Assembly (NCBI GenBank): GCA_963837055.1
Contig: CAWILU010000006.1
Location: forward strand, 513,455 to 577,454
Length of the DNA stretch: 64,000 nucleotides
Reading direction: 5' to 3'
Source of the DNA: an uncultured Acidobacteriota bacterium
GTDB lineage: Bacteria > Actinomycetota > Acidimicrobiia > Spongiisociales > ZC4RG35
Under the pieces are notes generated by a model, which was not told the DNA's origin, ran no database searches, and worked only from the letters and a program-made list of their open reading frames with translations. The position numbers and the translations under genes are program-made. Of this stretch, positions 26,801 to 64,000 are shown in pieces (position 1 is the first letter of the stretch; each line of letters begins with the position of its first letter).

Positions 26801-26810
26801 GGCCCCATTT

Positions 26811-27959: not shown

Positions 27960-28996
27960 CCGTCTCGCACCCATACGCCGGCGGCAGCCGGCTCCATGGT
28001 GGCAAACACGACCCCGATCCAGCCGTCGATGACCCCATCCGGGTCGACCTGGTTCTGCAGGGAACCGGAGAAGATGTCCATCACCTTCTGGGCGTCGTAG
28101 CGGGCCCGGTTGAACCTGCGGTCGACCCAGCTCTGAACCCGTTTGCGGACCGGGTTGAACAGCGCGGCCACCGCCAGAGTCGAGGCGGCGACGACGAGGT
28201 CGCTGGACGTGTCGAGCAGCGTGCTGGTGGCGGTGACCAAACCGAAGAACACTGCGGCCAACAGTCCGACGACCAACAAGTAACTGACCGTCCTGGACAC
28301 GATTCGATCGATCTCGTAGAGGCGGTAGCGGGTGATTGCAATCGCGACCGAGATGGGGACCCCGATGGTGATGATCATGCTTATCGCCGTGATGAGGGTC
28401 TGGGCCTCGGCCGAGGCGCCGAGAACGACACTCACGAGGACCAGCGAGACAACACCCACGAGCAGGACCAGGATCGGTCCTGCGACCTGACGGCGGATCA
28501 ATGGGGATCCCTTGATCAGCCGGTAGAGAAGCGGCAGTAAGCCGAGGATGACGACGACCGCGATGAAGCTGCCCGCCACCATGCTCAGGATGGCGATGGC
28601 GGCGGCATGCACCCAAGGCCACCACGGTCGCCGGTAGCGCCCGTCGGGAAAAAGTGTCAGTGACGAAAAGAGTGTCAACAGACCGGCATCGAAGACGATC
28701 TGTCCCGGCGTGACCAGGGCCGGGGTATTGAGAGTCTCCGCCATCTCCTGGAGGGCAACCCCTGCGCCGACGAGAAGCGGTCCGACGATGAACAGCCATC
28801 CAACTGCATTCGCCGGGATCCGCCGGGCCAGCACAACCCCAACGATCGGAAAGGCGAAGAAGGAGAGAGCCCACAATTTGTCCAGTAGGCCGATCACCTC
28901 CTCGGATCCGGGATCGAACCAGAGCGCGGCAGCCCACACCATCACGAGAAGTCCGAAGAGCGCCCAGGGCAGAATGCCGACCAATCGACGTCTCAC
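27956..28996 (-). CDS. polytopic membrane protein, paralog C (conserved C-terminal module family)
   Basis: 346 aa. The start ATG at 28994-28996 overlaps the paralog D stop (ATGA). The conserved C-terminal module is present. Confidence 0.8.
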   Translation of the reverse strand: MRRRLVGILPWALFGLLVMVWAAALWFDPGSEEVIGLLDKLWALSFFAFPIVGVVLARRIPANAVGWLFIVGPLLVGAGVALQEMAETLNTPALVTPGQIVFDAGLLTLFSSLTLFPDGRYRRPWWPWVHAAAIAILSMVAGSFIAVVVILGLLPLLYRLIKGSPLIRRQVAGPILVLLVGVVSLVLVSVVLGASAEAQTLITAISMIITIGVPISVAIAITRYRLYEIDRIVSRTVSYLLVVGLLAAVFFGLVTATSTLLDTSSDLVVAASTLAVAALFNPVRKRVQSWVDRRFNRARYDAQKVMDIFSGSLQNQVDPDGVIDGWIGVVFATMEPAAAGVWVRDG

Positions 28997-30096: not shown

Positions 30097-31298
30097 TCAG
30101 CGCCATCCCTGACCCAGACACCCGCTGATGCCGGATGCATCGTCTTGGAAACCACTTCGATCCAGCCCGACACCACCTCCGGCCCATCCACTTGGTTGCG
30201 CAACGACCCGGAGAACTCGTCCATCACCAATTCGGCGTCATAGCGAGATCGATTGAAACGCCGATCGACCCGGCCGAGCACCAAGCGTCTGATCGGGTTG
30301 AACAGGGCGGCGGCGGCCAATGTGGAGGCGGCCACTGCAAGCTGCGACTGCTCGGGGAGGAGGGTGGTCAGCCAGGTGAGCGCACCCAGATAGCCGGCCC
30401 CCAACACGACGACCACCAAGACGTAGCCCACGGTGCGGGAGATCACTCGATTGATCTCGTAGAGACCGTGGCGGGTGATGGCGATGCCAATCGCGGCTGC
30501 AGTCCCATTCCCCCACAGGGCGAATGCGACCACCACGGGATCGAAGCCCTGGATCCCGACAACGAGCTCTTCCAGGACGCCTGTGGCAAGGAACATCACC
30601 GGGAAGGCTGCGACAGCTAGGACGAACCACCGGAACTGCAGCCGCTCAACACCCGAGGAGCGCCGGAACCGAATGACCAAATCAACCACTGCGACTAGGG
30701 CAATCACGGCCAGTGCGGTGCCCAGCCATTCTGTGGCCGGGTCGAGCAGATCTCGGGCCCCAGGTATGCCGAGCGGGTTGTCCGGAGGGGTGTCACCCAC
30801 CACGGGGCCCGGGCGAAGTGCAAAGACCAGAGCGTCCACCAAGGTGACGAGGAGGAAGGCTCGGAGGATCCACCGGCCAAACCGACTCGGATCACCTGAT
30901 GGATACAAGACGACGAGGGTCATCACCAAAGCCACCACGGGGAGGAATCCCCAGGTCGCCACCCAGGCGGCCGGACCGCCGAACGGCCAGGCACCGGACT
31001 CGGTGACCAGGGCGAACCTCGCATATTCAGATGCGAGAAGATCGATCCCGACGCCGAATGTGATGCCGCACATGAGCCAGCCGATGCGATTGGCGGGGCG
31101 ACTCGAAACCACCAGGGCGCCGACCAGACCGAATCCGACCCACGTCGAGAGCCAGATCGCTCCTTCGAGTGCGGACTCTTGAGCCTGGGTGGTCGAGATC
31201 GGCGGGTTCATCTCGGTCAAGACCGCCGCCAAGACGATCATCGCCACACCCGTCAGCCACATCACCCACGCAATCCATCGGCTAGTGCGAGACCTCAT
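30093..31298 (-). CDS. polytopic membrane protein, paralog E (conserved C-terminal module family)
   Basis: The real start MRSRTSRWIAW is at 31298 and overlaps the paralog F stop (ATGA). The track ORF is extended 5'. This is the most divergent copy (RHGLYEINRV). Confidence 0.75.
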   Translation of the reverse strand: MRSRTSRWIAWVMWLTGVAMIVLAAVLTEMNPPISTTQAQESALEGAIWLSTWVGFGLVGALVVSSRPANRIGWLMCGITFGVGIDLLASEYARFALVTESGAWPFGGPAAWVATWGFLPVVALVMTLVVLYPSGDPSRFGRWILRAFLLVTLVDALVFALRPGPVVGDTPPDNPLGIPGARDLLDPATEWLGTALAVIALVAVVDLVIRFRRSSGVERLQFRWFVLAVAAFPVMFLATGVLEELVVGIQGFDPVVVAFALWGNGTAAAIGIAITRHGLYEINRVISRTVGYVLVVVVLGAGYLGALTWLTTLLPEQSQLAVAASTLAAAALFNPIRRLVLGRVDRRFNRSRYDAELVMDEFSGSLRNQVDGPEVVSGWIEVVSKTMHPASAGVWVRDGAE

Positions 31299-32431
31299 GA
31301 CCCGTCTCTCACCCAAACCCCCGCCAACGCGGGCTCCATCGTCTCGGAGACGACTCCGACCCATCCATCCACCAGATCGCCTTCGTCGACGCGGTCCTGT
31401 AGAGACCCGGCGAACCGATCCATGACACGTTCGGCGTCGTATTTCGAACGGTTGAAACGACGGTCCACCCAACCCTGGAGCCGCTTGCGCAGCGGGTTGA
31501 AGAGTGCGGCGACAGCGAGAGTGGATCCGGCGACCGCCAGCTGGCTCTCGGCTGGCGACACCCAGGTGAGGACAGTCACGGCTCCGACGAACACGAGCCC
31601 GAGGACCCCCACCACGAGGATGTACCCGACGGTCCGGGAGATGAGCCGGTCGATTTCGAAGAGGCGGTATCTGACCACCGCAACACCAATGCAGATCGGG
31701 ATGGCGGATCCTCCTACCAGCCAGAACAGCTCGAATACCGAATCTTCAGGCAAGACCTGGCCGGCGGCGGAGATGACCACGAACAGACATGCACCCAGGA
31801 GCAGCCACCGGTACTGCTGGCGTTCGATGCCCGTACTCCTTCGGCTTCGGCGGATGAGGCTGACAATCGCCGCTGCAGAGAGGCCGACCACGAAGAAGAA
31901 CCCCGTATCGCCGATGATGAAATTCAATACCGAGCTCAGCTCTACACCGAGTGGGTTTTTCAATCCGGTGTCCGTGAGTGGGAGCGGGCTCAGCACGAAA
32001 CCGATCACCGCCAAAGATCCGATCGCGATCACCGCCCGCCCCACGAATCTCTCCAGACGACCGGGGTATTCACCGGTAGGGAAGGTCGTGAGGAGCCAGA
32101 CAACGATCAGCCAGGGGACAACGCCCAACGTCGTATAAACGAGCTCGATCCACGCGGCCGCTTCGAGCGGCACGCGGAGCACGATGGACTGGAGCCCGAA
32201 CGAAACTCCCCAGACCAACCCGATGGCGAGACAGGCCATCCCGATCTTGTTCCCCGGCCGTCGCATCAGGATGATCCAACCCACGACCGGCCACGCCGCC
32301 CAGGACGCCGGCCACAGTTGATCACTGGTGTCGGCCAGGGGCCCGAAGAACATTCCCAGAAAAATGCCGCCCACGGCCAGCAAGAGAAGAGCGGTGAGGA
32401 GGATCTTCCTCAAGGTCCCTCCCTCAGCCAC
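31295..32431 (-). CDS. polytopic membrane protein, paralog F (conserved C-terminal module family)
   Basis: 378 aa; conserved C-terminal module (RYRLFEIDRLISRTVGY ... RRFNRSKYDAERVMDRF). The 5' end overlaps the paralog G 3' end by 22 nt. Confidence 0.75.
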   Translation of the reverse strand: MAEGGTLRKILLTALLLLAVGGIFLGMFFGPLADTSDQLWPASWAAWPVVGWIILMRRPGNKIGMACLAIGLVWGVSFGLQSIVLRVPLEAAAWIELVYTTLGVVPWLIVVWLLTTFPTGEYPGRLERFVGRAVIAIGSLAVIGFVLSPLPLTDTGLKNPLGVELSSVLNFIIGDTGFFFVVGLSAAAIVSLIRRSRRSTGIERQQYRWLLLGACLFVVISAAGQVLPEDSVFELFWLVGGSAIPICIGVAVVRYRLFEIDRLISRTVGYILVVGVLGLVFVGAVTVLTWVSPAESQLAVAGSTLAVAALFNPLRKRLQGWVDRRFNRSKYDAERVMDRFAGSLQDRVDEGDLVDGWVGVVSETMEPALAGVWVRDGS

Positions 32432-33618
32432 ACCCCAGCCGCTGCCGGATGCATGGTCTCGCTCACGACCGAGACCCAGCCATCGACCACAACACCTGGG
32501 TCGACCTCGTCACGCAGGGCGCCGGTGAAACCGATCATCACCCGTTCGGCGTCGTACCGGGTCCGATTGAAACGGTGATCGACGAAGGACTGGACACGTT
32601 TTCGAACCGGGTTGAACAAGGCGGCGGCGGCCAAAGTCGACGCGGCTACGGCAAGCGAGGACTCGGTGTCGAGCACGGACGTCAAGCCGGCCAGACCAAG
32701 GGCGTAGACCGTCCCGAGCAAGGCGATGACGATCACATAGGAGACGGTGCGGGAGATGATCCGATCGATCTCATAGAGCCGATAGCGGAGGATGGCGAGG
32801 GTGGCGGCGATGGGGATACCCAGGATCGAGAGATCGATCCAGATCTCCACAACCAGCGGCGGCTCAACGATGCCAAACAGCTCGAGGATCATCTCCGAGG
32901 TGAGGGCGAGCACGAACGAGAAACAGGCGAGAAGGAACCATTTCAACTGGAGCCGCTCGATCGACTCCGCCCTTCGGAAACGCAAGAACAGCGAGACCAC
33001 CGCTGCTCCCATGAAGAAGGGGTAAAGGGCGAAGAGGGGGCCGCCCAGCCAGCCGTACTCAGGGTTGGGCATGCCAGGGATCCCGATCGGATTGTCCGCC
33101 CACGCGGCGCAACCGAGCGGACCGCCCTCATCGATACAGATCTGGTCGGTGAAGATGTAGGTGATGAAGGTAAGGGCGACCAGAGCGAAGCCGAGCCACT
33201 GCAGCCAGAGCCAGCGTCGACTGGGGACATGCCCGGTGGGGAACCAGAGAACCAGGGTTCCGATGCCGACGATCCAACCCAGCCAGAAAGCGCCGCCGAT
33301 GGCCTGAAAGACGAGCAGCCCCCGCTCGGCCAGCCCCCCGGCCAACCCGGCGGAGAGGATCGAAAGGCCGATGGCCGAGAAGACCCATCCGACCCGGTTT
33401 CCGTCTGCCTTCCACAGAATCAGCGGCCCGAGCGCCAGAAAGGCGACCATCGTCGCGATGTTGCCGAACGTCTCGGCATCCACTGCCGGAGGCCACCATC
33501 CCAGAATCCCACCCAGTATCAACGTCGTTAGCAGCAGCAAGCTGATCACTGCCACAACGAGCGCGGCTGTTTTGCTGGCGTTGGGGGTTATCGCCTCTCC
33601 ATCCCTCATCGAGACCAC
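32410..33618 (-). CDS. polytopic membrane protein, paralog G (first gene of the array; conserved C-terminal module family)
   Basis: 402 aa. GTG start at 33618, or ATG at 33609. Conserved C-terminal module and FPTGHVPSRRWLW loop. Confidence 0.75.
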   Translation of the reverse strand: MVSMRDGEAITPNASKTAALVVAVISLLLLTTLILGGILGWWPPAVDAETFGNIATMVAFLALGPLILWKADGNRVGWVFSAIGLSILSAGLAGGLAERGLLVFQAIGGAFWLGWIVGIGTLVLWFPTGHVPSRRWLWLQWLGFALVALTFITYIFTDQICIDEGGPLGCAAWADNPIGIPGMPNPEYGWLGGPLFALYPFFMGAAVVSLFLRFRRAESIERLQLKWFLLACFSFVLALTSEMILELFGIVEPPLVVEIWIDLSILGIPIAATLAILRYRLYEIDRIISRTVSYVIVIALLGTVYALGLAGLTSVLDTESSLAVAASTLAAAALFNPVRKRVQSFVDHRFNRTRYDAERVMIGFTGALRDEVDPGVVVDGWVSVVSETMHPAAAGVWLREGP

Positions 33619-33633
33619 AGATTGGTAGTGAAC

Positions 33634-33715
33634 CGTTACGTAAGTGAAACGGACCTTTCACACGGAACATTCGGCTCGCGTTCCGGCTTCATCCGGTTTC
33701 ACATAGCCGTAACGC
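33634..33715. promoter_or_regulatory. repeat-rich divergent promoter region between the membrane-protein array and the AfsR-like regulator
   Basis: Four GTGAAAC-type half sites (33627 GTGAACC, 33644 GTGAAAC, 33655 TTTCACA, 33697 GTTTCAC). These include the palindrome GTGAAA-CGGACC-TTTCAC (33644-33661) and a flanking inverted pair CGTTACG (33634-33640) / CGTAACG (33709-33715). Confidence 0.4.
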
Positions 33716-33733
33716 TGGGACTAGCTTCGTCGC

Positions 33734-36475
33734 TTGCTCGACATCAAACTTCTGGGCCAACCCGACGTTTCGATCTCCGGACGTCCCGTGATCGTCGACA
33801 CCCGCAAGGCGATCGCTCTTCTCGCCTATCTCGTGGTAGAGAAGTCGGCGAGCAGGGACACATTGTCCGGCTTGTTCTGGGCCGATTCCTCGCAGGAAAG
33901 GGCCAGGGCGACCCTGCGCCGGACACTGTCCGCGCTGAAGGGCGCAACCGGAACCGATCTCATCGACGCAGACCGCAACCTCGTCTCGCTCGTAGGTGAG
34001 GTCAGCTCGGACCTTGACATCCTCGAGTGGGAGTTGGCGGCAACCGGGGACCATGGTCACGACCCACGCGATGTCTGCGACCGTTGCATCCCCCACCTTC
34101 GCCGGGCCACCGAGCTCTACCGGGGCGAGTTCCTCGAAGGTTTCTCCGTCAAGGCATCCCCCGAATTCGACGACTGGGTGCGAAACGTGGCCGAGTCGAC
34201 CAGAGTTCGAATCGGGGACGCCTTCAATCGACTCGGTACCGCCCTCGCCGCGAACGGTGAATACCCGCCCGCCATCGTCGCCGTCCTGCAGTGGATCGAG
34301 CTCGATCCACTCCATGAGCCGGCGCATCGATTCCTGATGCTGCTCCACGCGTGGGCCGGGGACCGCCCTGGCGCGATCGAGGCGTACCGCAGCTGTGTGA
34401 CGATCTTGGACCAGGAGCTCGGGGTGGCCCCGTTGGACGAAACCACCGAGCTCTACGAGGCGATCCTCGACGAGGACCTCCCGCCCGCCCCGGGCGCTCG
34501 CCGACGGGTGAAGGCCGAGGCCAGGCCGAGCCGACAGCCGCCGCCGGATCTGATCGATCGCGATGTCGAGCTCAATGCGCTTCAAGACGCGCTCCGTGAG
34601 AGTGCCACCGGCAAGGGCGTGCTGGTTGCAGTCACCGGTGCACCGTGGATGGGGAAGACACGGCTCCTCGAGGAGCTGGCCAACGAGGCGGAGGGAGAGC
34701 GTGATGTCCTGATTGGGCGGGCCTTTCGCATGGAGCAGACCCTGCCCTACGGCGTCGCCACCCAGGTGCTCGGCAACGCGCAGAACCGGATCGAATCTCG
34801 GCGGGCTGAGATCCCGCCCTGGGCCATGGCGGAGCTCGGAAGACTGCTGCCGGGCATGTCTCCTCCGTCCACCGATTCGGTCCCCGACCGCTTCGGCGAG
34901 CTGAGACTGCTCGAAGGGATCAACACCGTATTCACCGTGCTGGCGACAGAGCGCCCATTGCTTGTGATCCTCGACGACGCGCAATGGATGGACGCGTCCT
35001 CGGCGTCCATATTCTCCTACCTCGCCCGCCGCATCTCGCACATCCCGGTGCTAATGGTGTTGGCCGCCCGAGCCGACGACGACCTCCTCCCCGCGGTTGC
35101 CGAGGCGATGGGTGCAGCTGATATCGCGGTACCCATCTCCCCGCTGACTGCCGACGAACTGCTCCCTTTGGTTGGGGGTGAGACGGCGACAGCCGTGTCC
35201 CTCATCGAGCGAACCGGAGGGGTTCCACTGTTGGTCAACGAAGCGCTCACCGCAGGGTCTGACGCTGCGCCGGCCACGCGTGGAGTGGCCCGCTACATGG
35301 AGGCCCGACTCCTGGAGATCGACGATCTCGGCCACCAGATCCTCAGCGCCGCCGCCGCGCTCCATGGCGTCTGTGATGCGACCCTCCTCAGAGAGACGAG
35401 TGGACGCAGCGAGGAAGAAGTGGTGCATGCGGTCGAGCGGCTGGTGGCCGCCGGACTCCTCCGCGAGATACCCGAATCCGACGGGCTCACTTTCACTCTC
35501 GATGCCATGGAGCGAGTCACCTACGACAGCATCTCGATGGTGCGACGTCGGCTGCTCCATCGTCGGACAGCGCGGGCCCTGGCCGAGCGGGGTCACGCCC
35601 GGACCGACGCACGGTTGGCCGGGGCCATTGCCGGCCAGTTTCAGGCGGCCGGCGACCCTGAGGCGGCAGAGTGGTTCCATCTCGCCGGTGGCCTGGCCCG
35701 TGCGGCGTTCGCCAACGACTCTGCCCGGCAGTTCTACCGGGCCGCGCTGGCGATGGGTCACCCCGAGGTGGCCCCGATCCATCTCGCCCTGGGAGAGCTG
35801 GCCATGGCCTCCGGCGAGTACGAACAGGCTCGCCAGGAACTGACCCTGGCCGCCGGTCATGCCGACTCGGGGCTGATCGGACTGATCGAGCACAGGATGG
35901 GAGAAGTCGAGCGTCTTCTTGGCCATTTCAACGCCGCCGAGGAGCATTTCGCCCAATCGATCGAGACCCACCCCGCCCCGGCGGCCCTGCTCGCGGACTG
36001 GGCCCTCTTGGCCCATCGAACCGGCGATTCGGCCAACGCCACCGACCTGGCGGAAAAGGCATGGGCGGCCGCCGATCTGGAGGGCGACCCGGAATTGCTT
36101 TCTCGGGTCAGCAACATCCTCGCCGTCGTGACGGTCGACAGCGAGGCCGCCCTCGCCCACGCCGAGGACGCCATTCGTCTCGCCGGTGAAGACGATCTGC
36201 TGCGAATGGCCGCCCTGAACAACAAAGCCATCCTCCTCTCCGAGAACGGCGACCGGGAACGCTCGATCGATCTGGTTCGAGAGGCGATCGACATCGCTGC
36301 CCGCACCGGGCACCACCATCAGGAGGCGGCGTTGTGGAACCATCTCGCCGACCTCCACCATCGCCAGGGGCGCGGTGACGAAGCGAAGGATTCATTGACC
36401 AAGGCGGTCGCTCTCTTCGCCGACATCGACACCGGCGAGCCCGAGCCCGAGTTGTGGCTCCTCTCCCGTTGGTGA
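33734..36475 (+). CDS. AfsR/SARP-family transcriptional regulator (SARP wHTH + BTAD + P-loop NTPase (NB-ARC-like) + C-terminal TPR repeats)
   Basis: TTG start. N-terminus LLGQPDVSISGRPVIVDTRKAIALLAYLVV (SARP DNA-binding domain); BTAD ELYRGEFLEGF ... LDPLHEPAHRFLMLLHAWAGDRPGAIEAYR; Walker A GAPWMGKTRLLEEL; TPR-like C-terminus. Confidence 0.85.
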   Translation: MLDIKLLGQPDVSISGRPVIVDTRKAIALLAYLVVEKSASRDTLSGLFWADSSQERARATLRRTLSALKGATGTDLIDADRNLVSLVGEVSSDLDILEWELAATGDHGHDPRDVCDRCIPHLRRATELYRGEFLEGFSVKASPEFDDWVRNVAESTRVRIGDAFNRLGTALAANGEYPPAIVAVLQWIELDPLHEPAHRFLMLLHAWAGDRPGAIEAYRSCVTILDQELGVAPLDETTELYEAILDEDLPPAPGARRRVKAEARPSRQPPPDLIDRDVELNALQDALRESATGKGVLVAVTGAPWMGKTRLLEELANEAEGERDVLIGRAFRMEQTLPYGVATQVLGNAQNRIESRRAEIPPWAMAELGRLLPGMSPPSTDSVPDRFGELRLLEGINTVFTVLATERPLLVILDDAQWMDASSASIFSYLARRISHIPVLMVLAARADDDLLPAVAEAMGAADIAVPISPLTADELLPLVGGETATAVSLIERTGGVPLLVNEALTAGSDAAPATRGVARYMEARLLEIDDLGHQILSAAAALHGVCDATLLRETSGRSEEEVVHAVERLVAAGLLREIPESDGLTFTLDAMERVTYDSISMVRRRLLHRRTARALAERGHARTDARLAGAIAGQFQAAGDPEAAEWFHLAGGLARAAFANDSARQFYRAALAMGHPEVAPIHLALGELAMASGEYEQARQELTLAAGHADSGLIGLIEHRMGEVERLLGHFNAAEEHFAQSIETHPAPAALLADWALLAHRTGDSANATDLAEKAWAAADLEGDPELLSRVSNILAVVTVDSEAALAHAEDAIRLAGEDDLLRMAALNNKAILLSENGDRERSIDLVREAIDIAARTGHHHQEAALWNHLADLHHRQGRGDEAKDSLTKAVALFADIDTGEPEPELWLLSRW

Positions 36476-54646: not shown

Positions 54647-55702
54647 CTACTCCCGCTCCACTCCGATCTCGGTGGCCTTGATCGCCACCCATATCGACTG
54701 AGCCTCTGCCAGCCGCAAGGCTGCTGTGGCCTCCGAGGTCACCTCCACCGTGAGCGGCAAGGGCCCGCCGGTCCGGAGCCGTGTGCGTTCTCCCAGGTCC
54801 TCGATGACATCAATCGTGGTCTCCCAGGTGTTGCGGGGGCTTCCCTCAGGAGGCCCAAGATGCACCGAGACCGCGGACGGTCGGATGGTGAGGAGGACCT
54901 CGCCCAGAACCTCGTGCTCCGCCAGATGCACTCTGTGTCCACCCACATCGACCTGCCCACCCGACGCATGGCCAAAAAGGAGGTTCGATCCGGCCAGGTC
55001 GGCTGCGTAGCGCGTCCGAGGCCGAAGCCTGATGTCGTCCGGAGACCCGGACTGAGTGATGGCGCCGTTCTCGATGATGTGGACCTCGTCGGCGAGGAGG
55101 AACGCCTCGGTGGGGTCGTGTGTGATCACGAGGCGTGGCCCGGCAAAGTCGTCGAGATGGCGGTCCAATACGCGGCGAAGCTCGACACGGGTGGTGACGT
55201 CGAGAGCCGACAGCGGCTCATCCAATAGCAACAGGTCGGGCTCGATCACAAGCGCCCGCGCCAGGGCCACCCGCTGCGCCTGACCACCGGAGAGCTCGGA
55301 TGGTTTCCTCAGGCCTAGACCATCGAGCTCCAGCCGCTCGAGCCAAGCCTGCGCCCTTGTTCCCGCCTCGGCCCGACCCACTCCCCTGCTTCTCAACCCG
55401 AATGCGACGTTCTCCCGCACCGTGAGGTGCGGGAAGAGCAGATAGTCCTGAAAAACCACTCCAACCCGGCGTGACTCGGGTGGCACGTAGAGCCCGGTGG
55501 CCGGCTCGTCGAGTATGACCCCGGCCAGGGTGATCCGACCACTGTCGATTGGAAGCAGGCCGGCAATGGCACCTAGCGCGGTCGATTTGCCTGCGCCGTT
55601 CGGCCCGAGCAAGGCGACGGTCTCCCCAGCCGGGATCGACAAGTCGACGTCGACCCGGAACGCCTCACTTCTGCTCAAGCGGAATCGGGCCTCGAGGCCC
55701 AT
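54647..55702 (-). CDS. modC: molybdate ABC transporter ATP-binding protein with a C-terminal TOBE domain
   Basis: GPNGAGKST, LSGGQAQRVALARAL and LLLDEP. C-terminal TOBE-like beta domain. Starts at MGLEARF (55702); the track ORF is extended 5'. Confidence 0.8.
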   Translation of the reverse strand: MGLEARFRLSRSEAFRVDVDLSIPAGETVALLGPNGAGKSTALGAIAGLLPIDSGRITLAGVILDEPATGLYVPPESRRVGVVFQDYLLFPHLTVRENVAFGLRSRGVGRAEAGTRAQAWLERLELDGLGLRKPSELSGGQAQRVALARALVIEPDLLLLDEPLSALDVTTRVELRRVLDRHLDDFAGPRLVITHDPTEAFLLADEVHIIENGAITQSGSPDDIRLRPRTRYAADLAGSNLLFGHASGGQVDVGGHRVHLAEHEVLGEVLLTIRPSAVSVHLGPPEGSPRNTWETTIDVIEDLGERTRLRTGGPLPLTVEVTSEATAALRLAEAQSIWVAIKATEIGVERE

Positions 55703-55704
55703 GT

Positions 55705-56508
55705 CTAGACCGCTCTCCACCAACGATCCCGCAATCCGATCAACACCGCGAGAGAGACGATCACCATGACCAGGCTGAGGGCCACCGCTGTGTCCCGATC
55801 GCTTTCCAACGCGACGAACACTGCGAGCGGCAGCGTTTGGGTCCGGCCCTGGAGGTTGCCGGCGAAGGTGATCGTGGCCCCGAACTCCCCGAAGGCGCGG
55901 GCCCAAGTGAGAACCACCCCGGCCACCAGCGATGGGGCGATCATGGGCAGCGTCACCCGTCGCAACACGGTCCACCGGCTTGCTCCCAAGCTTGCGGCCG
56001 CCCCCTCGAACCGCTCGTCGAGATTTCGCAACCCCCCTTCCACGGTGATCACAAGGAATGGCATCGCCACGAAGGTATTGGCCACCACCACACCCCAAGT
56101 GGAGAAGGGAAGCAAGAGACCGGTCGCCTGGTTGAGTGGCTCGCCCACCAATCCACGACGACCGAGAGCAAAGAGGAGGGCTGCACCCCCAACAACCGGG
56201 GGCAGCACCAACGGCAGCGTGACCAGCCCACGTATCAAGGATCGTCCGGGGAAATCGAGACGGGCCATGATCCAGGCCAGAGGAATCCCGACCACGATCG
56301 CGATCATCGTGGCCGCGACCGAGGTCACCAGTGAGAGTCTCAGAGCATCGGTGACCACGTCGTCGGCGAGGAGCTCGGGTAGGTCGCTCCAGGGCACCCG
56401 GGCCAGTAGGCCGACGAAGGGCACCACGAACATGCCCAGCCCAATGCCACCCAGGATCATGAGCAAGGCCGGGGGACGTGGGGTGCGGCGCAGGCGCTCA
56501 GTGGTCAC
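55705..56508 (-). CDS. modB: molybdate ABC transporter permease
   Basis: EAA-loop AASLGASRWTVLRRVTLP in a 6-TM MetI-like fold. ATGA coupling with modA. Confidence 0.85.
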   Translation of the reverse strand: MTTERLRRTPRPPALLMILGGIGLGMFVVPFVGLLARVPWSDLPELLADDVVTDALRLSLVTSVAATMIAIVVGIPLAWIMARLDFPGRSLIRGLVTLPLVLPPVVGGAALLFALGRRGLVGEPLNQATGLLLPFSTWGVVVANTFVAMPFLVITVEGGLRNLDERFEGAAASLGASRWTVLRRVTLPMIAPSLVAGVVLTWARAFGEFGATITFAGNLQGRTQTLPLAVFVALESDRDTAVALSLVMVIVSLAVLIGLRDRWWRAV

Positions 56509-57302
56509 GGCGAGGTGAATCCATAGCTGGTCAGGATGGCCTGTCCCTCTTCGGAAAGCACGAATTCGATCCAGGCGGCCGCAGCCTCAGGGTTGGGGGC
56601 GTTGGCCAACGAGGCGATCGGATACTCGGCAACAACGTTGACCTCGGCGGGAATGTCGATTCCCTCGACCTCTCCCGGCGGGCTGGAGAGAACATCGGTC
56701 ACGTAGACGATCCCCGCATCCAGCTCATCGTTTTCGATCTTGGTGAGAAGGGCGCGCACGTCAGGCTCGTTGGTGTCGATCGCCGGGGTGACTCCGGCGT
56801 TCTCCAGAGCCTGCCGGCCAAAGTCCCCGCACGGGACGTCCTCGGCGCAGAGACCGATGAGGAGCTCTTCACTGGCGAAGTCCTCGAGCCCGGCCACCTC
56901 GCCTGGATTGCCGGCCGGGACAGCGATCTGGAGCACGTTGGTGACAAATATCTCGGGTTCACCGCTCGCCTCGACGACCTCCACCACTTGGTCCATGTTC
57001 GAGGTGTTGGCCGAAGCGAACACATCCGCCGGCGCTCCCTCCAGAATGGCCTCACGAAGACCGGAGCTCGGCCCGAGATTGAGCAGGACATCAACATCTG
57101 GATTCGCTGCCTCGAAGGCGGCTTCCACTTCAGCGAAAGCATCGGTCAAGGACGCAGCGGCCGAGACGAGCAACTCCCCTTCGAGGGCACTGGCCGCCGT
57201 GGTCGTGGCAGTGGCGGCGGTGATGGTTTCGTCGGCCGAGCCGGCGCACGACGAGACGACCAGCAAGAGGGCAACCAACCCGACCATGCGAGTCGTGCGC
57301 AT
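56505..57302 (-). CDS. modA: molybdate ABC transporter substrate-binding lipoprotein
   Basis: MRTTRMVGLVALLLVVSSC|AG lipobox; ModA fold (SAAASLTDAF ... YVTDV). AAGGAG RBS 5 nt upstream of the ATG at 57302. Confidence 0.85.
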   Translation of the reverse strand: MRTTRMVGLVALLLVVSSCAGSADETITAATATTTAASALEGELLVSAAASLTDAFAEVEAAFEAANPDVDVLLNLGPSSGLREAILEGAPADVFASANTSNMDQVVEVVEASGEPEIFVTNVLQIAVPAGNPGEVAGLEDFASEELLIGLCAEDVPCGDFGRQALENAGVTPAIDTNEPDVRALLTKIENDELDAGIVYVTDVLSSPPGEVEGIDIPAEVNVVAEYPIASLANAPNPEAAAAWIEFVLSEEGQAILTSYGFTSP

Positions 57303-57325
57303 CGTTACTCCTTTAATCTCAATGT

Positions 57326-57340
57326 GACTACCTGGTAGTC
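57326..57340. promoter_or_regulatory. perfect 15-bp palindrome (candidate operator) in the modA-padR divergent intergenic region
   Basis: GACTACC-T-GGTAGTC, 24 nt upstream of the modA start and 59 nt upstream of the padR start. Confidence 0.45.
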
Positions 57341-57398
57341 GCATGGAGAGTACTCGGTGTGCCTCGGGCATGACCCGCGTCCCTACGCTGGTATCGGG

Positions 57399-57953
57399 AT
57401 GGATCAGTTCCGGCCCTCGCCCACCGAGTACGCCGTGCTCGGCGTTCTAGCCGACGGCCCGACCCATGGCTTTGCGATATCCAAGACACTCCAACCGGAG
57501 ACCGAGCTGGGGAGGGTGCTCACAGTCAGAAGGCCGTTGGTATACCGCGCACTAGACCGACTCGTGGATGCCGGGCTCGCCGAGGCGGTGCACACCGAGC
57601 CGGGGACCGGAGGCCCTAATCGAGTGATCCATCGGATCACCAGGTCAGGGAGGCGTCGTCTCGATATCTGGCTAAAGAGCCCAGTCGGCCACGTCAGAGA
57701 AATGCGCATCGAGTTCCAGCTGAAGTTGGCGGTGCTCCAGCGCCTGGGACGCTCGCCACTGCAACTGGTCGTGCTTCAGCGCCGCGCCCTCGAACCGACG
57801 CTGACCGCCCTCGACGTGTCGCCCTCCGGGCCACTGGACCATGTGGAGTTGTGGCGCCAGCACAACGCGGTGGCGGCGGCCTCGTATCTCGACAGCCTTG
57901 AACGGCATTACACCCGGAATTCGGTCCCGGGAAACGAAGACCCGCAGCGATAA
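57399..57953 (+). CDS. PadR family transcriptional regulator
   Basis: YAVLGVLADGPTHGFAISKTL ... LVYRALDRLVDAGLAE winged-helix PadR signature. The track ORF is extended 5'. Confidence 0.8.
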   Translation: MDQFRPSPTEYAVLGVLADGPTHGFAISKTLQPETELGRVLTVRRPLVYRALDRLVDAGLAEAVHTEPGTGGPNRVIHRITRSGRRRLDIWLKSPVGHVREMRIEFQLKLAVLQRLGRSPLQLVVLQRRALEPTLTALDVSPSGPLDHVELWRQHNAVAAASYLDSLERHYTRNSVPGNEDPQR

Positions 57954-57962: not shown

Positions 57963-58160
57963 GTGAAACCGGGTCTACGAATGGCGGTCGAAATGGTGGA
58001 GCTGGGGGCACAACTTCGTGCCCAGCGTCATCGCCGTGAGCAGCCCGACGCGACCGAGGACGAGGTATTGGATGTCGTCCTCGCCTGGCTATCCGAGCGG
58101 CCAATGGCTCCCGACGGTGATGCGGTCGGGAGGGTTACGACGTGGCCGAGGACGGCCTGA
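57963..58160 (+). CDS. small hypothetical protein overlapping the downstream nucleotidyltransferase gene (possible antitoxin-like partner)
   Basis: 65-aa ORF; 19-nt overlap with the next gene. No motif. Confidence 0.25.
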   Translation: MKPGLRMAVEMVELGAQLRAQRHRREQPDATEDEVLDVVLAWLSERPMAPDGDAVGRVTTWPRTA

Positions 58161-58753
58161 TCGATCTCGAGGCCAGTCTTCGGCGAAGGGTCGCCGACCT
58201 GGAAGATCTGAGAGTCGGATTCGCACTCGTCGGCGGGCTGGCAGTGTCGGTCCGAGCCGAGCCACGTCTGACCCGTGACGCAGACTTCGCCCTATCTGTG
58301 GCCAATGACGCCGAGGCCGAAGCCGCCGTGCGCCGTCTCGTCGCCGCCGGATATGCCCCCGGGCCTATGGTCGAGCAAGAGGCGACGGGCCGGCTCGCCG
58401 CCATCAGACTCACTCACCAGGATTATCCCGGGGTACTCACCGACCTCTTGTTCGCCTCATCGGGGATCGAGCAGGAGATCGTTGCGGCGGCGGAGCGCAT
58501 CGAGGTGCTACCGGGTCTGACCGTGCCGGTGGCCACGATCGGGCACCTCCTGGCGATGAAGCTATTGGCCCGCGACGACCGGAACCGTCCGGCCGACGCC
58601 GACGACTTACGCGCCCTGCGCCGGATCGCCGATGACCAGGCCTGGTCTACCGCCCACTCCGCGATCAGAGCGATCGTCGAACGCGGATACGACCGGGGTA
58701 GAGATCTCGAAGCGGCGCTCAAGGAGCTCCGTCACCAGGAGCCTTTCGGCTGA
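58142..58753 (+). CDS. nucleotidyltransferase (Pol-beta superfamily) family protein
   Basis: GGLAVSVRAEPRLTRDADFAL fits the hG[GS]x9-13[DE]h[DE]h NTase motif; about 200 aa. Confidence 0.5.
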   Translation: MAEDGLIDLEASLRRRVADLEDLRVGFALVGGLAVSVRAEPRLTRDADFALSVANDAEAEAAVRRLVAAGYAPGPMVEQEATGRLAAIRLTHQDYPGVLTDLLFASSGIEQEIVAAAERIEVLPGLTVPVATIGHLLAMKLLARDDRNRPADADDLRALRRIADDQAWSTAHSAIRAIVERGYDRGRDLEAALKELRHQEPFG

Positions 58754-58777: not shown

Positions 58778-59341
58778 TCAGGTCTGGAGACCGGCCTCGA
58801 TGTCGAACTCGACCCTGAATTTCTCGGAGACGAGCATCCCGCCTCCTTCGAGAGGCACGTTCCAGGTGAGACCCCATTCCTTCCGCTCGATCTCACCCAC
58901 CGCGGTGAAACCGGCCTTGGTGTTGCCATAGGGATCGGTCGTAGCGCCCTCGAAAGTCAGATCGAAAGTGACCGGATTGGTGACGCCCCGGATCGAGAGG
59001 TCACCTGTCAGCTTCCATTTCTTGCCCTTGGGCTCGAGACCTGTGGACTTGAAGGTGATCAGCGGATGCTGCTCCGCGTCGAGGAAATCCGCTGAGCGGA
59101 GATGTATATCCCGGTCCCGGGTGCCCGTGGTCACCGAAGATGCCTTCGCCTCGACCTCGACTCTGGACTCGAGCGGGTCCTCGCCGACGACGATCGTCCC
59201 ATCGAATTCTTCGAACGTGGCTCTCACTTTGGCCACCATCAGGTGACGGGCGATGATCCGGAGATCGGTGTGTGCGTGGTCGATCTCCCAGGTACCGGCT
59301 GCCGGTACCTCTCTTCCGTCAACACGCCGTGTGGCTGACAT
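58778..59341 (-). CDS. YceI family (polyisoprenoid-binding) protein
   Basis: WEIDHAHTDL ... FRSADFLDAEQHP ... GDLSIRGVT typical YceI beta-barrel. The start MSATRR is at 59341. Confidence 0.8.
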   Translation of the reverse strand: MSATRRVDGREVPAAGTWEIDHAHTDLRIIARHLMVAKVRATFEEFDGTIVVGEDPLESRVEVEAKASSVTTGTRDRDIHLRSADFLDAEQHPLITFKSTGLEPKGKKWKLTGDLSIRGVTNPVTFDLTFEGATTDPYGNTKAGFTAVGEIERKEWGLTWNVPLEGGGMLVSEKFRVEFDIEAGLQT

Positions 59342-59446
59342 GACTTGCTCCTTTTTTTTTGAAGGTACTTGAACTATCAACTATTGACAGTTCACGCATA
59401 TTCCCTCCAGAGCGATCGGCTTCCTCGGAAATGGGGTGTTCACCCG

Positions 59447-60407
59447 ATGGCGGTGGCTTTCGCGATCAGGCATGGTCGCATCATGGAGACTGCATTGCGG
59501 CCCACCCGGGGTCATGCGCTCTTTGCGATGGCGGTGACCATCGGAGGGATGAATTTCCTGGCGGTTCGTGTGAGCAACCGTGAGCTCGAGCCCTTTTGGG
59601 GGGCGGGCCTTCGTTTCAGTCTGGCCGCGGCCCTTTTCGTCACCTACACCCTTGTCCGGCGTCTGCCCTGGCCACGGGGCCGCCAACTTCTATTGACCGT
59701 TGTCTACGGGCTCGTCGGCATCTCGGGGTTCTATGCCCTCATGTACTGGGCCCTGGTGCGCGTCACAGCCGGAGCGGCCACGGTGGTCCTCGCCCTCGTC
59801 CCGCTGGTCACGCTGATCCTCGCCGGCGCCTTGGGATTGGAACGGCTCAGACGCAGAGCTGTCTTGGGGGCAGTGCTGGCACTGGCCGGGATCGCATGGA
59901 TGGTTCTCGGTCCGGGACAGATCGAGCTTCCCCCAACCGCACTGTTGGCGATGCTGGGAGCCACCTTCTGCACCGGCCTGAGCGTCATCGTGGGCAAGAT
60001 CCTCTCGGGCAATCACCCGGGAGTCACCAACGCAATTGCTCTCACTGTGGGCGCGGTTTCCCTACTCGTGATGTCGGCAGTGACCGGCGAACGCTGGGCT
60101 CTCCCACGAGCAGCCCGCGGTCAGGTGGTCGCTCGCCTACCTTGTGATCCTCGGGTCGGTTGGGCTGTTCGTCCTGCTCCTTCTGGTGGTTCGGCTGTGG
60201 ACGGCGTCGGCCACCGCCTATGCCTTCGTGTTGTTCCCGGTCGTCACGATGCTGCTCGGAGACTGGCTCCTGGACGAGCCGGTCACGTTCCACGGCGCGA
60301 CAGGCGCGACGTTGGTGATGGCGGGAGCATGGTTCGGCGCCTTGTCGCGGCCGAATCCCCGATCCGCGGCGGTCAATCCTGTCGAAGTGGCTGTCGAGCA
60401 CGGCTGA
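59447..60407 (+). pseudogene. DMT superfamily (EamA) transporter, frameshifted near 60105-60125
   Basis: The first EamA half is in ORF 59369-60427 (through ...VTGERWALP). The second half, WSLAYLVILGSVGLFVLL ... LLGDWLLDEPVTF, is in ORF 60144-60407 in another frame. Confidence 0.65.
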
Positions 60408-60436
60408 GCCCGATCCACCGTGGGTAGGGTCGAAGC

Positions 60437-61960
60437 ATGGCCTTCGCCGATGCGAAGCTCCGGGTTACGGAGCTGCTGGCATCGCTCTCGCTCGCCACTG
60501 ATCTCGGCACCGGTCAGCCTCTGGGTCACGGTCTACGGACCAGCCTGATCGCGGTCGCTACCGCCCGAGAATTGGGTTGCCCCCCGGAACAGGTCCGACA
60601 TGTCCAGCAGGTGTCCCTGATCCGTTTTCTTGGCTGCACCTCGGATTCGGACGACACCGCCCGCATGGCCGGGGGTGACGACCTGGCGTTCATGACAGCG
60701 TTTGCTCCGGCCCACCTCGGGAGTAAACGTGAGGCTCTTCGCGCGATCACACGATCAGTCGGAGCCGGTCAGCCCCTTGCCCGTCGAGCCCGACTGATCG
60801 CGATCGCAATCGCCAAACCTCCATCTGCTGCCGGTGGGCTCGCCGCTCATTGCGAGGTCGGCGCAATGCTGGCGAGACGGCTCGGTCTCGAGGACGAAGT
60901 CATCACAGCCCTCGAGCATGCCTACGAGCGCTGGGACGGGACGGGCGACCCCACCGGCCTGAAGGGCGACGAGATACCTCTCGAGACTCGCATCGCAGTC
61001 GTTGCCCGCGACGCAGACCTCTTCGCTCGAAGTGGTGAGGACGTGGGCGAGGTGTTCCGGTCACGCCAGGGTCACGCCTATGACCCCCGGGTAGTGGAGG
61101 CCGTCATCGGCCTTGACCCACTCCAGGGGGAAGCCGAATGGGATGAGGTGCTGAAGGCGGAGCCGGAACCGATTGGCGACCTCGACGACGTCGATCAGGC
61201 GCTGACGGCGATCGCCGACTACGTGGACCTGAAATCACCATGGACCCGGGGGCACTCGCGCACCGTCGCCGATCTGGCGGAGGAGGCGGGCCGCATCTCA
61301 GGTCTGGCCGATGCCCAGCACCAGCTGAGACGGGTGGCCCTGGTCCACGACCTGGGGCGGGTCGGGGTAGAGAACGGGATCTGGGACATGGAGGGGCCGC
61401 TGACAACCCCGGCGTCGGAAAAGGTCAGGCTCCACCCATATTGGACAGAGCGGGTCCTCTCCCGATGCGTTGCCCTGGCCGGGTTGGGGGAGATCGCCTC
61501 CAGTCACCACGAGCGGCTCGACGGCTCCGGCTACCACCGCCGGATGACCGGGGAACAGCTCTCCGATCGGGCGCGCATCCTGGCCGCCGCCGACATGATG
61601 GCGGCCCTGACCGCGGACCGGCCGCACCGCGCTCGTTTCGCCACCGAAGACGCGGCTCGAATGCTCGAAGCCGAAGTGGTAGCGGGCCGGCTCGATCTCG
61701 ACGCAGTCGCCGCAGTGATCGATGCGGCCGGCGGGCAGACGAAGCCGGTCAGGACGGCCAATCCCGGTGGCCTCACCGACCGGGAGGTGGAGGTGCTCAG
61801 TCTCCTCGGCCGGGGTCGTACCAACCGCCAGATCGGCGAGGAGCTCTTCATCTCGCCAAAGACCGTTGGGCGGCACATCGAGAACATCTACGGCAAGATC
61901 GCGGTATCGACCCGGGCGGGCGCAACGGTGTTCGCGATGGAGCATCGCCTCCTCGGATGA
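60437..61960 (+). CDS. LuxR-family transcriptional regulator with tandem HD / HD-GYP domains
   Basis: Second domain HHERLDGSGYHRRM (HD-GYP signature HHExxDGxGYP); first domain degenerate (HAYERWDGTGDP). C-terminal LuxR HTH LTDREVEVLSLLGRGRTNRQIGEELFISPKTVGRHIENIYGKI. Confidence 0.8.
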   Translation: MAFADAKLRVTELLASLSLATDLGTGQPLGHGLRTSLIAVATARELGCPPEQVRHVQQVSLIRFLGCTSDSDDTARMAGGDDLAFMTAFAPAHLGSKREALRAITRSVGAGQPLARRARLIAIAIAKPPSAAGGLAAHCEVGAMLARRLGLEDEVITALEHAYERWDGTGDPTGLKGDEIPLETRIAVVARDADLFARSGEDVGEVFRSRQGHAYDPRVVEAVIGLDPLQGEAEWDEVLKAEPEPIGDLDDVDQALTAIADYVDLKSPWTRGHSRTVADLAEEAGRISGLADAQHQLRRVALVHDLGRVGVENGIWDMEGPLTTPASEKVRLHPYWTERVLSRCVALAGLGEIASSHHERLDGSGYHRRMTGEQLSDRARILAAADMMAALTADRPHRARFATEDAARMLEAEVVAGRLDLDAVAAVIDAAGGQTKPVRTANPGGLTDREVEVLSLLGRGRTNRQIGEELFISPKTVGRHIENIYGKIAVSTRAGATVFAMEHRLLG

Positions 61961-62160
61961 GGCCTTGCAAGGAAGGTAGGATTTCGCCATGGGCGGCTTG
62001 TCCCGCCCGACCTTCGTATCGGCGCCCGCGCCGCCGACCCGGAAGGCAAAGGGGACCTCGAGTGCTCGGCAAGGTTGGGTTCGAACTGTGCGTGTCCACG
62101 CAATCGACGGTGAGCGCGGGTCACTGGTCTTTGCGGTCGAGACACGAGAAAGCAGTTGAG

Positions 62161-62811
62161 ATGACCCGACAAGAGACCTTCAAGCGCCGAATCCGAGAGC
62201 GGATGGAGAAGACCGGCGAGCGTTATGGTGCCGCCCGGCGCAACCTCATCGAACGAACCGCCGATGGAGGCCGGCAATGGGTGGCGGAGCCGGACATGGC
62301 CGACGAGACGCTGCGCGATGCCACCGGGCGAGGATGGGATGAGTGGTGTGACATCATCGACGCCTGGCCCGGCAAGGATGACGGCCACACCGCCATCGCC
62401 ACCTACGTACATGATGAGCTAGGAGTGGCGGGGTGGTGGGCCCAGACCGTGACCGTTGGGTATGAGCGGATATCGGGCCTGCGTCTTCCCTATCAACAGC
62501 CCGACGGGACCTTCAGCGCGAACAAGTCACGCACGGTCACGGCAGATGCCGATCTGATCAGACAGATGCTCTTGGAAGATGGCGACCGCGCCGATCTCTT
62601 CCCCGGGCTCGAGACCGAGCTTCGGTCTCGACCGACCTCCAAGACACTCCGGATCGGGATCGGGCCGGGAACTGCCCAGATCGCACTCGAACCGCAGGAC
62701 GACGACAGGGTGAAGGTGAGCATTGCCCACGACAAGCTCCCCAGCGCGGCGGCTGTCGAAGAATGGAAGGATTACTGGTCTGACTGGCTCCAGGCGATCG
62801 ACGATTCGTGA
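62161..62811 (+). CDS. hypothetical protein
   Basis: 216-aa ORF starting MTRQETF. The longer track ORF (61240-62811) overlaps the upstream gene in another frame and is an artefact. Confidence 0.45.
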   Translation: MTRQETFKRRIRERMEKTGERYGAARRNLIERTADGGRQWVAEPDMADETLRDATGRGWDEWCDIIDAWPGKDDGHTAIATYVHDELGVAGWWAQTVTVGYERISGLRLPYQQPDGTFSANKSRTVTADADLIRQMLLEDGDRADLFPGLETELRSRPTSKTLRIGIGPGTAQIALEPQDDDRVKVSIAHDKLPSAAAVEEWKDYWSDWLQAIDDS

Positions 62812-62852
62812 CCGCTAAGGCTCCCGGGGTCGCATGCCGATCATCTCCCGGG

Positions 62853-64000
62853 ATGACGATGCGGCGTGCCCTGATCGTGCTGACTGTGTTGGTGCTCGCC
62901 GCCCCGCCGGTTTCCGCTGACGACACGGTGGGGCTGGTCGATCCGGATGGCGGGCTTTGGTACCTACGCGACCGAAACGGGACGGTGACCAGCTTCTTCT
63001 ATGGGAATCCTGGTGACTTTCCAATGGCGGGCGACTGGGATTGTGACGGGATCGACACTCCAGGGTTGTATCGCCAGTCGGACGGGTTTGTCTATCTGCG
63101 TAACTCCAACAGTCAGGGGATCGCCAACGTCAGGTTCTTCTTCGGCAACCCAGGGGACATCCCATTGGCCGGAGACTTCGACGGTGACGGTTGTGACACG
63201 GTTTCCATCTACCGCGCCGCCGAGGCACGGATCTATGTGATCAACGAGTTGGGCGCCAACGATGGAGGACTGGGAGCAGCCGACTTCAATTACATCTTCG
63301 GCAATCCCGGGGACAAGCCCTTCGTCGGCGACTTCGACGGCAACGGGATCGACACCGTCGGCTTGCACCGGGAATCGACCGGATTCGTCTATTTCCGGAA
63401 CACCCACAGCCAGGGCAACGCCAACGCCCAGTTCTTCTTCGGGGACCCCGGAGACCGGTTGGTATCAGGTGACTGGGGAGTGATCGACGGAGTCGATACG
63501 CCAGCCGTGTTCCGTCCGACCAACACGACCTTCTACTTCCGCCACACCAACACCCAGGGCAACGCAGACAGCCAATTCGATTGGGGGTCTCCCACCTGGC
63601 TCCCGGTCGCCGGCTCCTACGGAGCCCTCCCCGGAACCGGGCCAGGCTCGGGCTGCTCGATCTTCCCCGCAGACAACATCTGGAACGCGCGGGTCGACTC
63701 CCTGCCAGTGCACGCGAGGTCCTCCCAATACGTCTCCCGGATCGGCGCTGCCGCCAACGTACACGCAGATCTCGGGAGTGGGGTGTGGCCGCCCGGGTCG
63801 ACCAGCCCGATCGGGATCCCCTACGTCACGGTTGGCGCCGGCCAGCCCGACGTCGCGGTCCAGTTCACCTCCTGGCCGGGAGAGAGTGACCCCGGGCCGT
63901 ACCCGATCCCGGCCAATGCCCCGATCGAAGGTGGTCCCTCCTCGTCGGGAGATCGGCATGTGATCGTCGTCGACAGCGCCGCCTGCACCCTGTTCGAGCT
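62853..64000 (+). CDS. secreted FG-GAP repeat (beta-propeller) protein, 5' partial (continues beyond the window end)
   Basis: Hand-translated; absent from the ORF track because there is no stop inside the window. Signal peptide MTMRRALIVLTVLVLAAPPVSA, then four repeats of about 50 aa: F(F/Y)GNPGD-x-P-x-GD(F/W)DGDG-x-DT-x5-R-x5-(Y/F)-x-R. Confidence 0.7.
   Translation, partial: MTMRRALIVLTVLVLAAPPVSADDTVGLVDPDGGLWYLRDRNGTVTSFFYGNPGDFPMAGDWDCDGIDTPGLYRQSDGFVYLRNSNSQGIANVRFFFGNPGDIPLAGDFDGDGCDTVSIYRAAEARIYVINELGANDGGLGAADFNYIFGNPGDKPFVGDFDGNGIDTVGLHRESTGFVYFRNTHSQGNANAQFFFGDPGDRLVSGDWGVIDGVDTPAVFRPTNTTFYFRHTNTQGNADSQFDWGSPTWLPVAGSYGALPGTGPGSGCSIFPADNIWNARVDSLPVHARSSQYVSRIGAAANVHADLGSGVWPPGSTSPIGIPYVTVGAGQPDVAVQFTSWPGESDPGPYPIPANAPIEGGPSSSGDRHVIVVDSAACTLFE

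Follow-up and report, generated by a model that had tools for sequence, protein, structure and literature searches.

The gene examined here occupies positions 60437..61960 on the + strand of a 64,000-nt stretch of contig CAWILU010000006.1 (below, the window is this whole 64-kb stretch). Its product, the protein under study, is a 507-aa polypeptide in which a degenerate HD-GYP-like domain, a complete HD-GYP domain and a LuxR-type helix-turn-helix (HTH) follow one another. The HD-GYP + LuxR architecture is common and already catalogued; what is new is a 20-bp palindrome that accompanies these genes and lies directly before a partner gene, which in the window is the transporter gene eamA. The HD-GYP-LuxR family is a plausible first case of an HD-GYP trigger enzyme that is also a transcription factor. 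With a probability of about 50%, the protein is read here as an HD-GYP "trigger phosphodiesterase" that would activate the transcription of its neighbour, as a one-component factor built on the chassis of a V-cGAP3-like phosphodiesterase. The features on which the regulatory part of this reading turns are the following:

59430..59449, + strand: candidate operator, a 20-bp imperfect palindrome AATG-GGGTGTTCACCC-GATG with its core at 59434-59445, recognised by comparative analysis
59471..59476, + strand: -10-like hexamer CATGGT, set 25 nt downstream of the palindrome core, with the ATG of eamA following 6 nt later
59483..60407, + strand: eamA, the partner gene, for a drug/metabolite transporter (DMT)/EamA protein, with Pfam EamA matches on both halves and on the intact orthologue of locus L001
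60437..61960, + strand, stop codon included: gene for the pseudo-HD-GYP / HD-GYP / LuxR-HTH protein, recognised by its open reading frame (ORF), Pfam HD_5 and GerE matches and full-length orthologues of 56-94% identity
61766..61951, + strand: LuxR/GerE-type HTH, about aa 444-505, recognised by PF00196, matches in the PDB and conservation

The palindrome was found by k-mer enrichment in upstream regions, as the family element aATG-GGG(T/C)G(T/A)(T/A)C(A/G)CCC-GATGcgg; its consensus is aATG-GGGyGwwCrCCC-GATG, with arms xATsGGGyG. The 95 family loci (611 kb) contained 75 strict and 81 relaxed matches, and none was found in 49 unrelated control loci (615 kb). Among loci with adequate flank on both sides, 44/46 carried it, the two exceptions being L106 and a Kofleriaceae locus of 38% identity. 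It lay on the strand of the regulator in every locus but one, and always directly before the partner gene, whether this coded for an EamA transporter, an alpha/beta-hydrolase or an SRPBCC protein. Where the partner precedes the regulator (27 loci) the palindrome was upstream of the partner; where the regulator comes first it was found 8-30 nt past the regulator stop codon in most loci, and up to about 130 nt past it in three. The window has a single copy in its 64 kb, in the gap that separates yceI from eamA. One match against 0.55 expected (12-mer, at most one mismatch) is not significant by itself, and the case for the palindrome is therefore the comparative one.

Two loci, L137 (at about 435) and L141 (at about 3006), each contain one palindrome some 780 nt before the regulator and a second one shortly after it, and both copies precede an alpha/beta-hydrolase-like ORF. 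Some family members may thus control two targets.

The layout downstream of the palindrome is rigid. A hexamer of the form xAnnnT (CATGGT, CATTGT or CATACT) was present 24-25 nt past the core in 61/66 unique sites, other offsets accounting for 1-4 each. An ATG or GTG followed 6-7 nt past the hexamer in 32/63 contexts, implying leaderless transcripts. For eamA, this pattern implies a leaderless transcript with a predicted start at 59483, which would place the palindrome centre near -42.5, overlapping the -35 region. Neither a consensus sigma-70 promoter, nor a -35 consensus, nor an intrinsic terminator was found in 59250-62300. Class-II activators bind near -42.5, and the lux box has the same position. 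Given a site centre at about -42.5 and no -35 consensus, the regulator is probably a class-II-type activator. An RNA element was also considered for the palindrome and rejected, since it lies upstream of the predicted start and its 2-nt loop rules out a hairpin; no Rfam family was found at E<=1 in 59200-60600.

The HTH of the protein matched the GerE/LuxR family (PF00196) at residues 446-500 with 57.5 bits against a gathering score of 23.5 (E=1e-15). Its matches in the PDB were the DNA-binding domains of LiaR, VraR, DegU, DosR, NarL and GerE, with Foldseek TM values of 0.8-0.88 to those of LiaR, VraR, DegU, GerE and DosR. The recognition helix, KTVGRHIENIY, is nearly invariant within the clade. 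The helix variant KTVGHHVEH (versus KTVGRHVEN) pairs with GGGCG rather than GGGTG half-sites in 7/7 cases, a covariation within one clade that is suggestive of HTH-operator pairing. Both the HTH fold and a 20-bp dyad operator are shared with LuxR and its lux box, DosR, NarL, GerE and LiaR, while the GGGTG half-site with 2-bp spacing is specific to the HD-GYP-LuxR family. Unlike in LuxR/NarL-type dimers, the input is neither an acyl-homoserine-lactone-binding nor a receiver domain. These comparisons argue strongly for an HTH that works as a DNA-binding output and acts locally, with the 20-bp palindrome as its predicted operator.

The palindrome could instead be a promoter element or the site of another factor, with the protein acting mainly as a phosphodiesterase and its HTH exerting no control over the neighbour. 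We consider this very improbable. The operator is assigned by co-occurrence and genes for PadR or IclR regulators lie nearby in some loci, as such an explanation would have it, but these genes are found in a minority of loci, whereas the palindrome tracks the HD-GYP-LuxR gene through three partner types. Moreover, the recognition helix shows the same degree of conservation as the site, and the dyad symmetry fits a LuxR-type dimer. PadR itself was rejected as the palindrome binder because padR is adjacent in a minority of loci only; in the window, two inserted genes separate padR from eamA.

In the trigger phosphodiesterase reading, a dimer of the regulator would bind the palindrome overlapping the -35 region of the partner promoter, a step for which comparative genomics argues strongly, and the geometry would suit class-II-type activation of that promoter. 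The target in the window would be eamA. The end of eamA and the ATG of the regulator are 29 nt apart on the same strand, and the two genes probably form one operon; the regulator therefore probably activates its own expression too, which in the gene order of the window would create a positive loop like that of PdeL.

The signal-receiving part of the protein consists of two further features:

60464..61165, + strand: N-terminal degenerate HD-GYP-like domain, about aa 10-243, recognised by alignment to the N-terminal domain of V-cGAP3, HD_5 score and conservation
61190..61726, + strand: C-terminal HD-GYP domain, about aa 252-430, recognised by Pfam, alignments to 5z7c, 4mcw, 9rbz and 4r8z, conservation and fold search

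An initial annotation, made from the sequence alone, had read the 507-aa product as two HD-type domains followed by a LuxR HTH, and the ORF (ATG start), the Pfam matches to HD_5 and GerE and the collinearity with V-cGAP3 all agree with it. It had left the choice between HD-GYP and generic HD to a domain search, which placed the protein in the HD-GYP subfamily: the whole protein matched the HD-GYP model HD_5 (PF13487) with 116.9 bits (gathering score 27.2), and of the two matching stretches the best was that at residues 259-420. The best NCBIfam match was the NosR-type c-di-GMP phosphodiesterase family NF053512 (c-di-GMP, cyclic di-GMP), whose score of 105 bits fell short of the cut-off (400) and came from the HD-GYP part only. 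Neither a receiver (REC) or further input domain nor an EAL domain was detected by Pfam in the 507-aa protein, the catalytic domain being HD-GYP; the absence of REC separates it from the RpfG-type REC-HD-GYP response regulators.

An AlphaFold2 model built on 85 orthologues (predicted local distance difference test score, pLDDT, 88.6; predicted template modelling score, pTM, 0.80) had as its top Foldseek match, and best structural relative, V-cGAP3 (5z7c; E=9e-16, 445 columns), followed by the HD-GYP structures DvhD, PA4781, PmGH and Bd1817 and then by LuxR-type DNA-binding domains. In a phmmer comparison, residues 10-427 were collinear with residues 22-451 of the 5z7c chain (E=3.8e-52). A direct BLASTP comparison of the N-terminal and C-terminal halves was not significant (E=0.064), and a simple internal repeat arising by duplication of the HD halves was not demonstrable. 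It is the HD_5 profile and the comparisons with V-cGAP3, rather than any internal repeat, that support the reading as two HD domains.

Judged from its aligned residues, the C-terminal HD-GYP domain has retained an intact two-metal active site. The seven HD-GYP metal ligands (H273, H304, D305, H333, H357, H358 and D386) are all present, at positions that match those of the metal ligands in PmGH, V-cGAP3 and PA4781. Together with E359, G365 and Y366 they are invariant in 85 orthologues of 57-94% identity, and the same active-site residues are 74-99% conserved across 144 representative clusters at 50% identity. Ligand loss in both domains, which the initial annotation had set against its own proposal, was not found. 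It had also credited the second domain with a canonical HD-GYP signature; this stood for the seven ligands and not for the GYP triad, since the signature reads HHERLDGSGYH, within HHERLDGSGYHRRM (aa 357-370, from nt 61505), with GYH in place of GYP. The Gly and Tyr of the triad are invariant among the 85 orthologues, and the proline position, His in the protein under study, is His in 68% and Pro in 21% of the 144 clusters. In addition, the Lys of HDxGK is replaced by Arg (HDLGR; VHDLGR from nt 61346).

A Glu as eighth ligand marks the trinuclear HD-GYP subtype capable of two-step hydrolysis (PMC8177086). At the position of this Glu, which lies in the KDPETQNH segment of PmGH (4mcw), the protein has W269, and Y, F or W occurs there family-wide. 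A dinuclear site with a single hydrolysis step is therefore predicted, and the alignment points to this one-step subtype.

Completeness of the site bears on whether the domain is an enzyme or a receptor. As a receptor, the HD-GYP domain would bind a cyclic dinucleotide with no meaningful turnover, in the manner of DvhD or PA2572, and switch the HTH upon binding. DvhD is an example of how a degenerate HD-GYP domain can serve as a receptor that binds c-di-GMP with high affinity (PMC13090378), and the fusion scaffold tolerates loss of catalysis, one ligand being lost in about 10-25% of the wider family (e.g. H357 to Ala in 13% of the 144 clusters). Nevertheless, all seven ligands are invariant in the protein and in the 85 sequences closest to it; this is difficult to account for unless the site is catalytic or at least binds metal, and it makes a pure receptor improbable here. 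DvhD of Desulfovibrio vulgaris (PDB 9rbz) shares the HD-GYP fold (TM 0.8 on the target), and c-di-GMP drives dimerisation of its isolated HD-GYP domain (PMC13090378). It differs in lacking HD and HH, both kept in the C-terminal domain of the 507-aa protein, in being inactive, and in signalling across the membrane, whereas the output here is a DNA-binding domain.

The N-terminal domain, by contrast with the C-terminal one, is a catalytically dead HD-GYP-like domain according to its ligand positions. On its own it exceeds the HD_5 threshold (39.9 bits, residues 137-193), it matches the N-terminal domain of V-cGAP3 with E=1.6e-23, and an ERWDGxGxP motif was found in it; EHAYERWDGTGDP corresponds to aa 160-172. 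The HD pair is replaced by RF (R63-F64) and the HH pair by AY (A162-Y163), the degeneracy that the initial annotation had reported for the first copy, and without HD and HH the domain would be unable to hold a metal centre. Across the 144 clusters its conservation is at least as tight as that of the C-terminal domain, with D22, G66, C67, C139, W166, G168, P172 and R185 conserved in 92-99%. The lost HD and HH ligands and this very strong conservation both suit the earlier proposal that the first copy is no enzyme but has a regulatory or sensor role. The two cysteines, C67 (99%) and C139 (97%), are also present in V-cGAP3, C67 standing where HDxGK has its Lys. The C67/C139 pair may form a metal or redox site in what was once the active-site pocket. 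Several HD-GYP enzymes require the reduced diferrous state for activity.

V-cGAP3 (VCA0931 of Vibrio cholerae, PDB 5z7c) is a tandem pseudo-HD-GYP/HD-GYP phosphodiesterase for 3'3'-cyclic GMP-AMP (3'3'-cGAMP) and c-di-GMP. The two proteins share a degenerate N-terminal and a catalytic C-terminal domain in collinear arrangement, the two N-domain cysteines, and the lack of the Glu eighth ligand (Tyr in V-cGAP3, Trp in the 507-aa protein). They differ at the active site (GYP and HDIGK versus GYH and HDLGR) and in output, V-cGAP3 having no DNA-binding domain and the 507-aa protein a C-terminal GerE/LuxR HTH. Identity is only about 27-35%, and the substrate preference of V-cGAP3 is not transferable. 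By homology, the input would be c-di-GMP and/or 3'3'-cGAMP, bound and linearised at the HD-GYP site. [quoted passage not shown]

A regulator that keeps the DNA-binding domain and the operator but answers to a signal other than a cyclic dinucleotide, such as redox state, a metal, or a different phosphodiester or small molecule connected with what the partner transporter, hydrolase or SRPBCC protein handles, is the main alternative, though a tentative one. The GYP motif has been described as a substrate-specificity element (PMC8177086), and in this family its proline has become His and the HDxGK Lys has become Arg; on the other hand, single Ala substitutions of GYP residues were reported to barely change phosphodiesterase activity (PMC8177086), so that GYH need not shift the substrate. 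The near-invariant C67/C139 pair, common to V-cGAP3 and with C67 at the HDxGK Lys position, would suit a redox or metal input, and the partner families EamA, Abhydrolase_6 and Polyketide_cyc2 are handlers of small molecules. Against this, c-di-GMP or cGAMP is the substrate or ligand of every one of the closest characterised relatives, and the full set of catalytic ligands is kept, as expected of a hydrolase. A neighbouring cyclase was looked for in all frames of the window and rejected for want of a GG[DE]EF motif, a result that speaks for the alternative; a 64-kb window nevertheless says little about the cyclase content of the genome.

For the trigger phosphodiesterase reading, the closest functional precedent is PdeL (YahA) of E. 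coli, which combines a LuxR HTH with an EAL domain and is a trigger phosphodiesterase with a palindromic site and c-di-GMP-dependent positive autoregulation (PMC5052742). Both proteins join, by sequence features in our case, a cyclic-dinucleotide phosphodiesterase-type domain and a LuxR HTH in one polypeptide, and the candidate operator of the window would likewise drive the probable operon that holds the regulator. However, the EAL domain of PdeL has a fold unrelated to HD-GYP, its HTH is N-terminal rather than C-terminal, and it lacks a pseudo-enzyme domain, so the likeness is a functional analogy with no homology outside the HTH. The trigger phosphodiesterases found so far (PdeR, PdeL and TpdA) are all EAL proteins, and HD-GYP equivalents were explicitly anticipated, as an open possibility, in 2016 by Hengge (PMC5052742). 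The HD-GYP-LuxR family, abundant in soil Actinomycetota, is a natural candidate for such an HD-GYP trigger enzyme. Its candidate 20-bp operator, rigid promoter layout and single adjacent target gene make the switch role directly testable, and the vague annotation "HD domain-containing phosphohydrolase / LuxR regulator" becomes a concrete hypothesis.

Several points weigh against this reading. The cyclic-dinucleotide ligand is putative, and the active site departs from the classical one in a systematic manner (His for the GYP proline, Arg for the HDxGK Lys). No GGDEF-type cyclase motif accompanies the gene in the window, and the partners (DMT transporter, alpha/beta-hydrolase, SRPBCC protein) typify small-molecule handling and not the classic c-di-GMP outputs. 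No characterised member of the HD-GYP-LuxR/GerE family was found in the literature searched. On the DNA side, the palindrome is assigned to the protein by co-occurrence alone, and the HTH/operator covariation, limited to one clade, is not phylogenetically independent. The transcription start is deduced from the sequence, and repression in place of activation is possible. Finally, regulator-first loci have the palindrome in a short intergenic gap, where read-through from the regulator gene is possible.

A more far-reaching combination of these elements, which we regard as unlikely, would make the family the first HD-GYP-based transcription factors and a portable regulator-plus-operator module. 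Its GYH/HDxGR site would read a messenger other than c-di-GMP, or would join hydrolysis with a redox or metal signal of the Cys pair, and the output would be the turning on of export or hydrolysis genes. The range of such a module would cover Actinomycetota, Dormibacterota, Chloroflexota and, probably, Proteobacteria.

The initial annotation had further described the fusion as unlike the usual arrangements. This did not hold, because the tandem layout is that of V-cGAP3, the LuxR fusion belongs to a large named family, and PdeL is a precedent; the argument from rarity fails since the architecture is abundant and already catalogued. Matches in a word-index search numbered 6,170 proteins at E<=1e-5. 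Of these, the top 120 were nearly all 500-530 aa long, with few truncated or longer; all carried HD_5, HD and GerE, and they came mostly from metagenome-assembled genomes of Acidimicrobiia. The IMG name for these proteins is 'HD-GYP domain-containing protein (c-di-GMP phosphodiesterase class II)/DNA-binding CsgD family'. An exhaustive search of 50%-identity representatives gave 1,298 at E<=1e-30, and the top 150 of these were nearly all collinear over residues 7-506. The HD+LuxR fusion family is therefore large, with at least 150 full-length clusters at 50% identity.

Scans of genomes, metagenomes and plasmids located further members in Gaiellaceae, Dormibacterota, Chloroflexota and Kofleriaceae. 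Full-length homologues of 30-35% identity were found in Burkholderia, Paraburkholderia, Variovorax and Cupriavidus. As early as 2012, a census of LuxR proteins from cultured Actinobacteria listed an 'HDc+LuxR' group, monophyletic in Mycobacterium, Rhodococcus and Nocardioides (PMC3466318). These proteins belong to the same fusion family and were catalogued with no function, ligand or operator. Cultured entry points to the family are Nocardioides sp. JS614, the Burkholderia homologues and the Mycobacterium and Rhodococcus proteins of that census (PMC3466318).

The homologue on the plasmid of Nocardioides sp. JS614, NOCA_RS01080, has 47% identity to the 507-aa protein over residues 6-506. Unlike the window, its locus (L145, pNOCA01) has no clear copy of the palindrome: the best match, ATG-GGTAGGTCTGCC-GATGcgg at 7269-7287 on the - strand, keeps the flanks and has 5 mismatches. 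An alpha/beta-hydrolase gene, convergent with the regulator homologue, follows about 60 nt downstream of this match, which may have arisen by chance or may be an operator that has diverged.

Adjacency of an EamA transporter gene and the regulator was found in about 45 loci, always co-directional and usually 4-90 bp apart, with the transporter gene upstream of the regulator in some loci and downstream in others. In a distant clade (49-55% identity) the partner is an alpha/beta-hydrolase gene of the Abhydrolase_6 family immediately downstream (21 loci), and an SRPBCC (Polyketide_cyc2) partner was found in 2-4 loci.

The eamA gene of the window contains a 1-nt insertion near 60106 (CTCCCACGAGC versus CTCCC-CCAGC in the 94%-identical locus L001) that splits it into two frames. 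Either the gene has recently become a pseudogene or the indel is an error of sequencing or assembly; the downstream regulator gene is intact.

Upstream of eamA, genes for an AbiEii-like nucleotidyltransferase (58142-58753, + strand) and a YceI-like protein (58778-59380, - strand) separate it from padR (57357-57953). This insertion is confined to the window and L001, padR abutting eamA in L002, L003, L007 and L009, and there is no space for an AbiEi antitoxin gene upstream of the AbiEii-like gene. Beyond padR lies a modABC-like molybdate ATP-binding cassette (ABC) transporter operon (54650-57371, - strand), which includes a ModA-like binding protein gene (56505-57371) and, in ORF 54650-56497, a TOBE-domain ABC ATPase; synteny of the operon extends to L001, L002, L003, L007 and L009.

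Downstream of the regulator, two + strand genes at 62140-62811 (216 aa) and 62784-63998 (more than 405 aa, running off the window) had no Pfam match at E<=0.001. The 216-aa gene is kept in synteny in L001, L003, L007 and L009, and the longer one in L001 and L003. Elsewhere in the window, an 8-kb region at about 26000-34000 has a strongly positive AT skew (0.15-0.27), and its long ORFs lie nearly all on the - strand.

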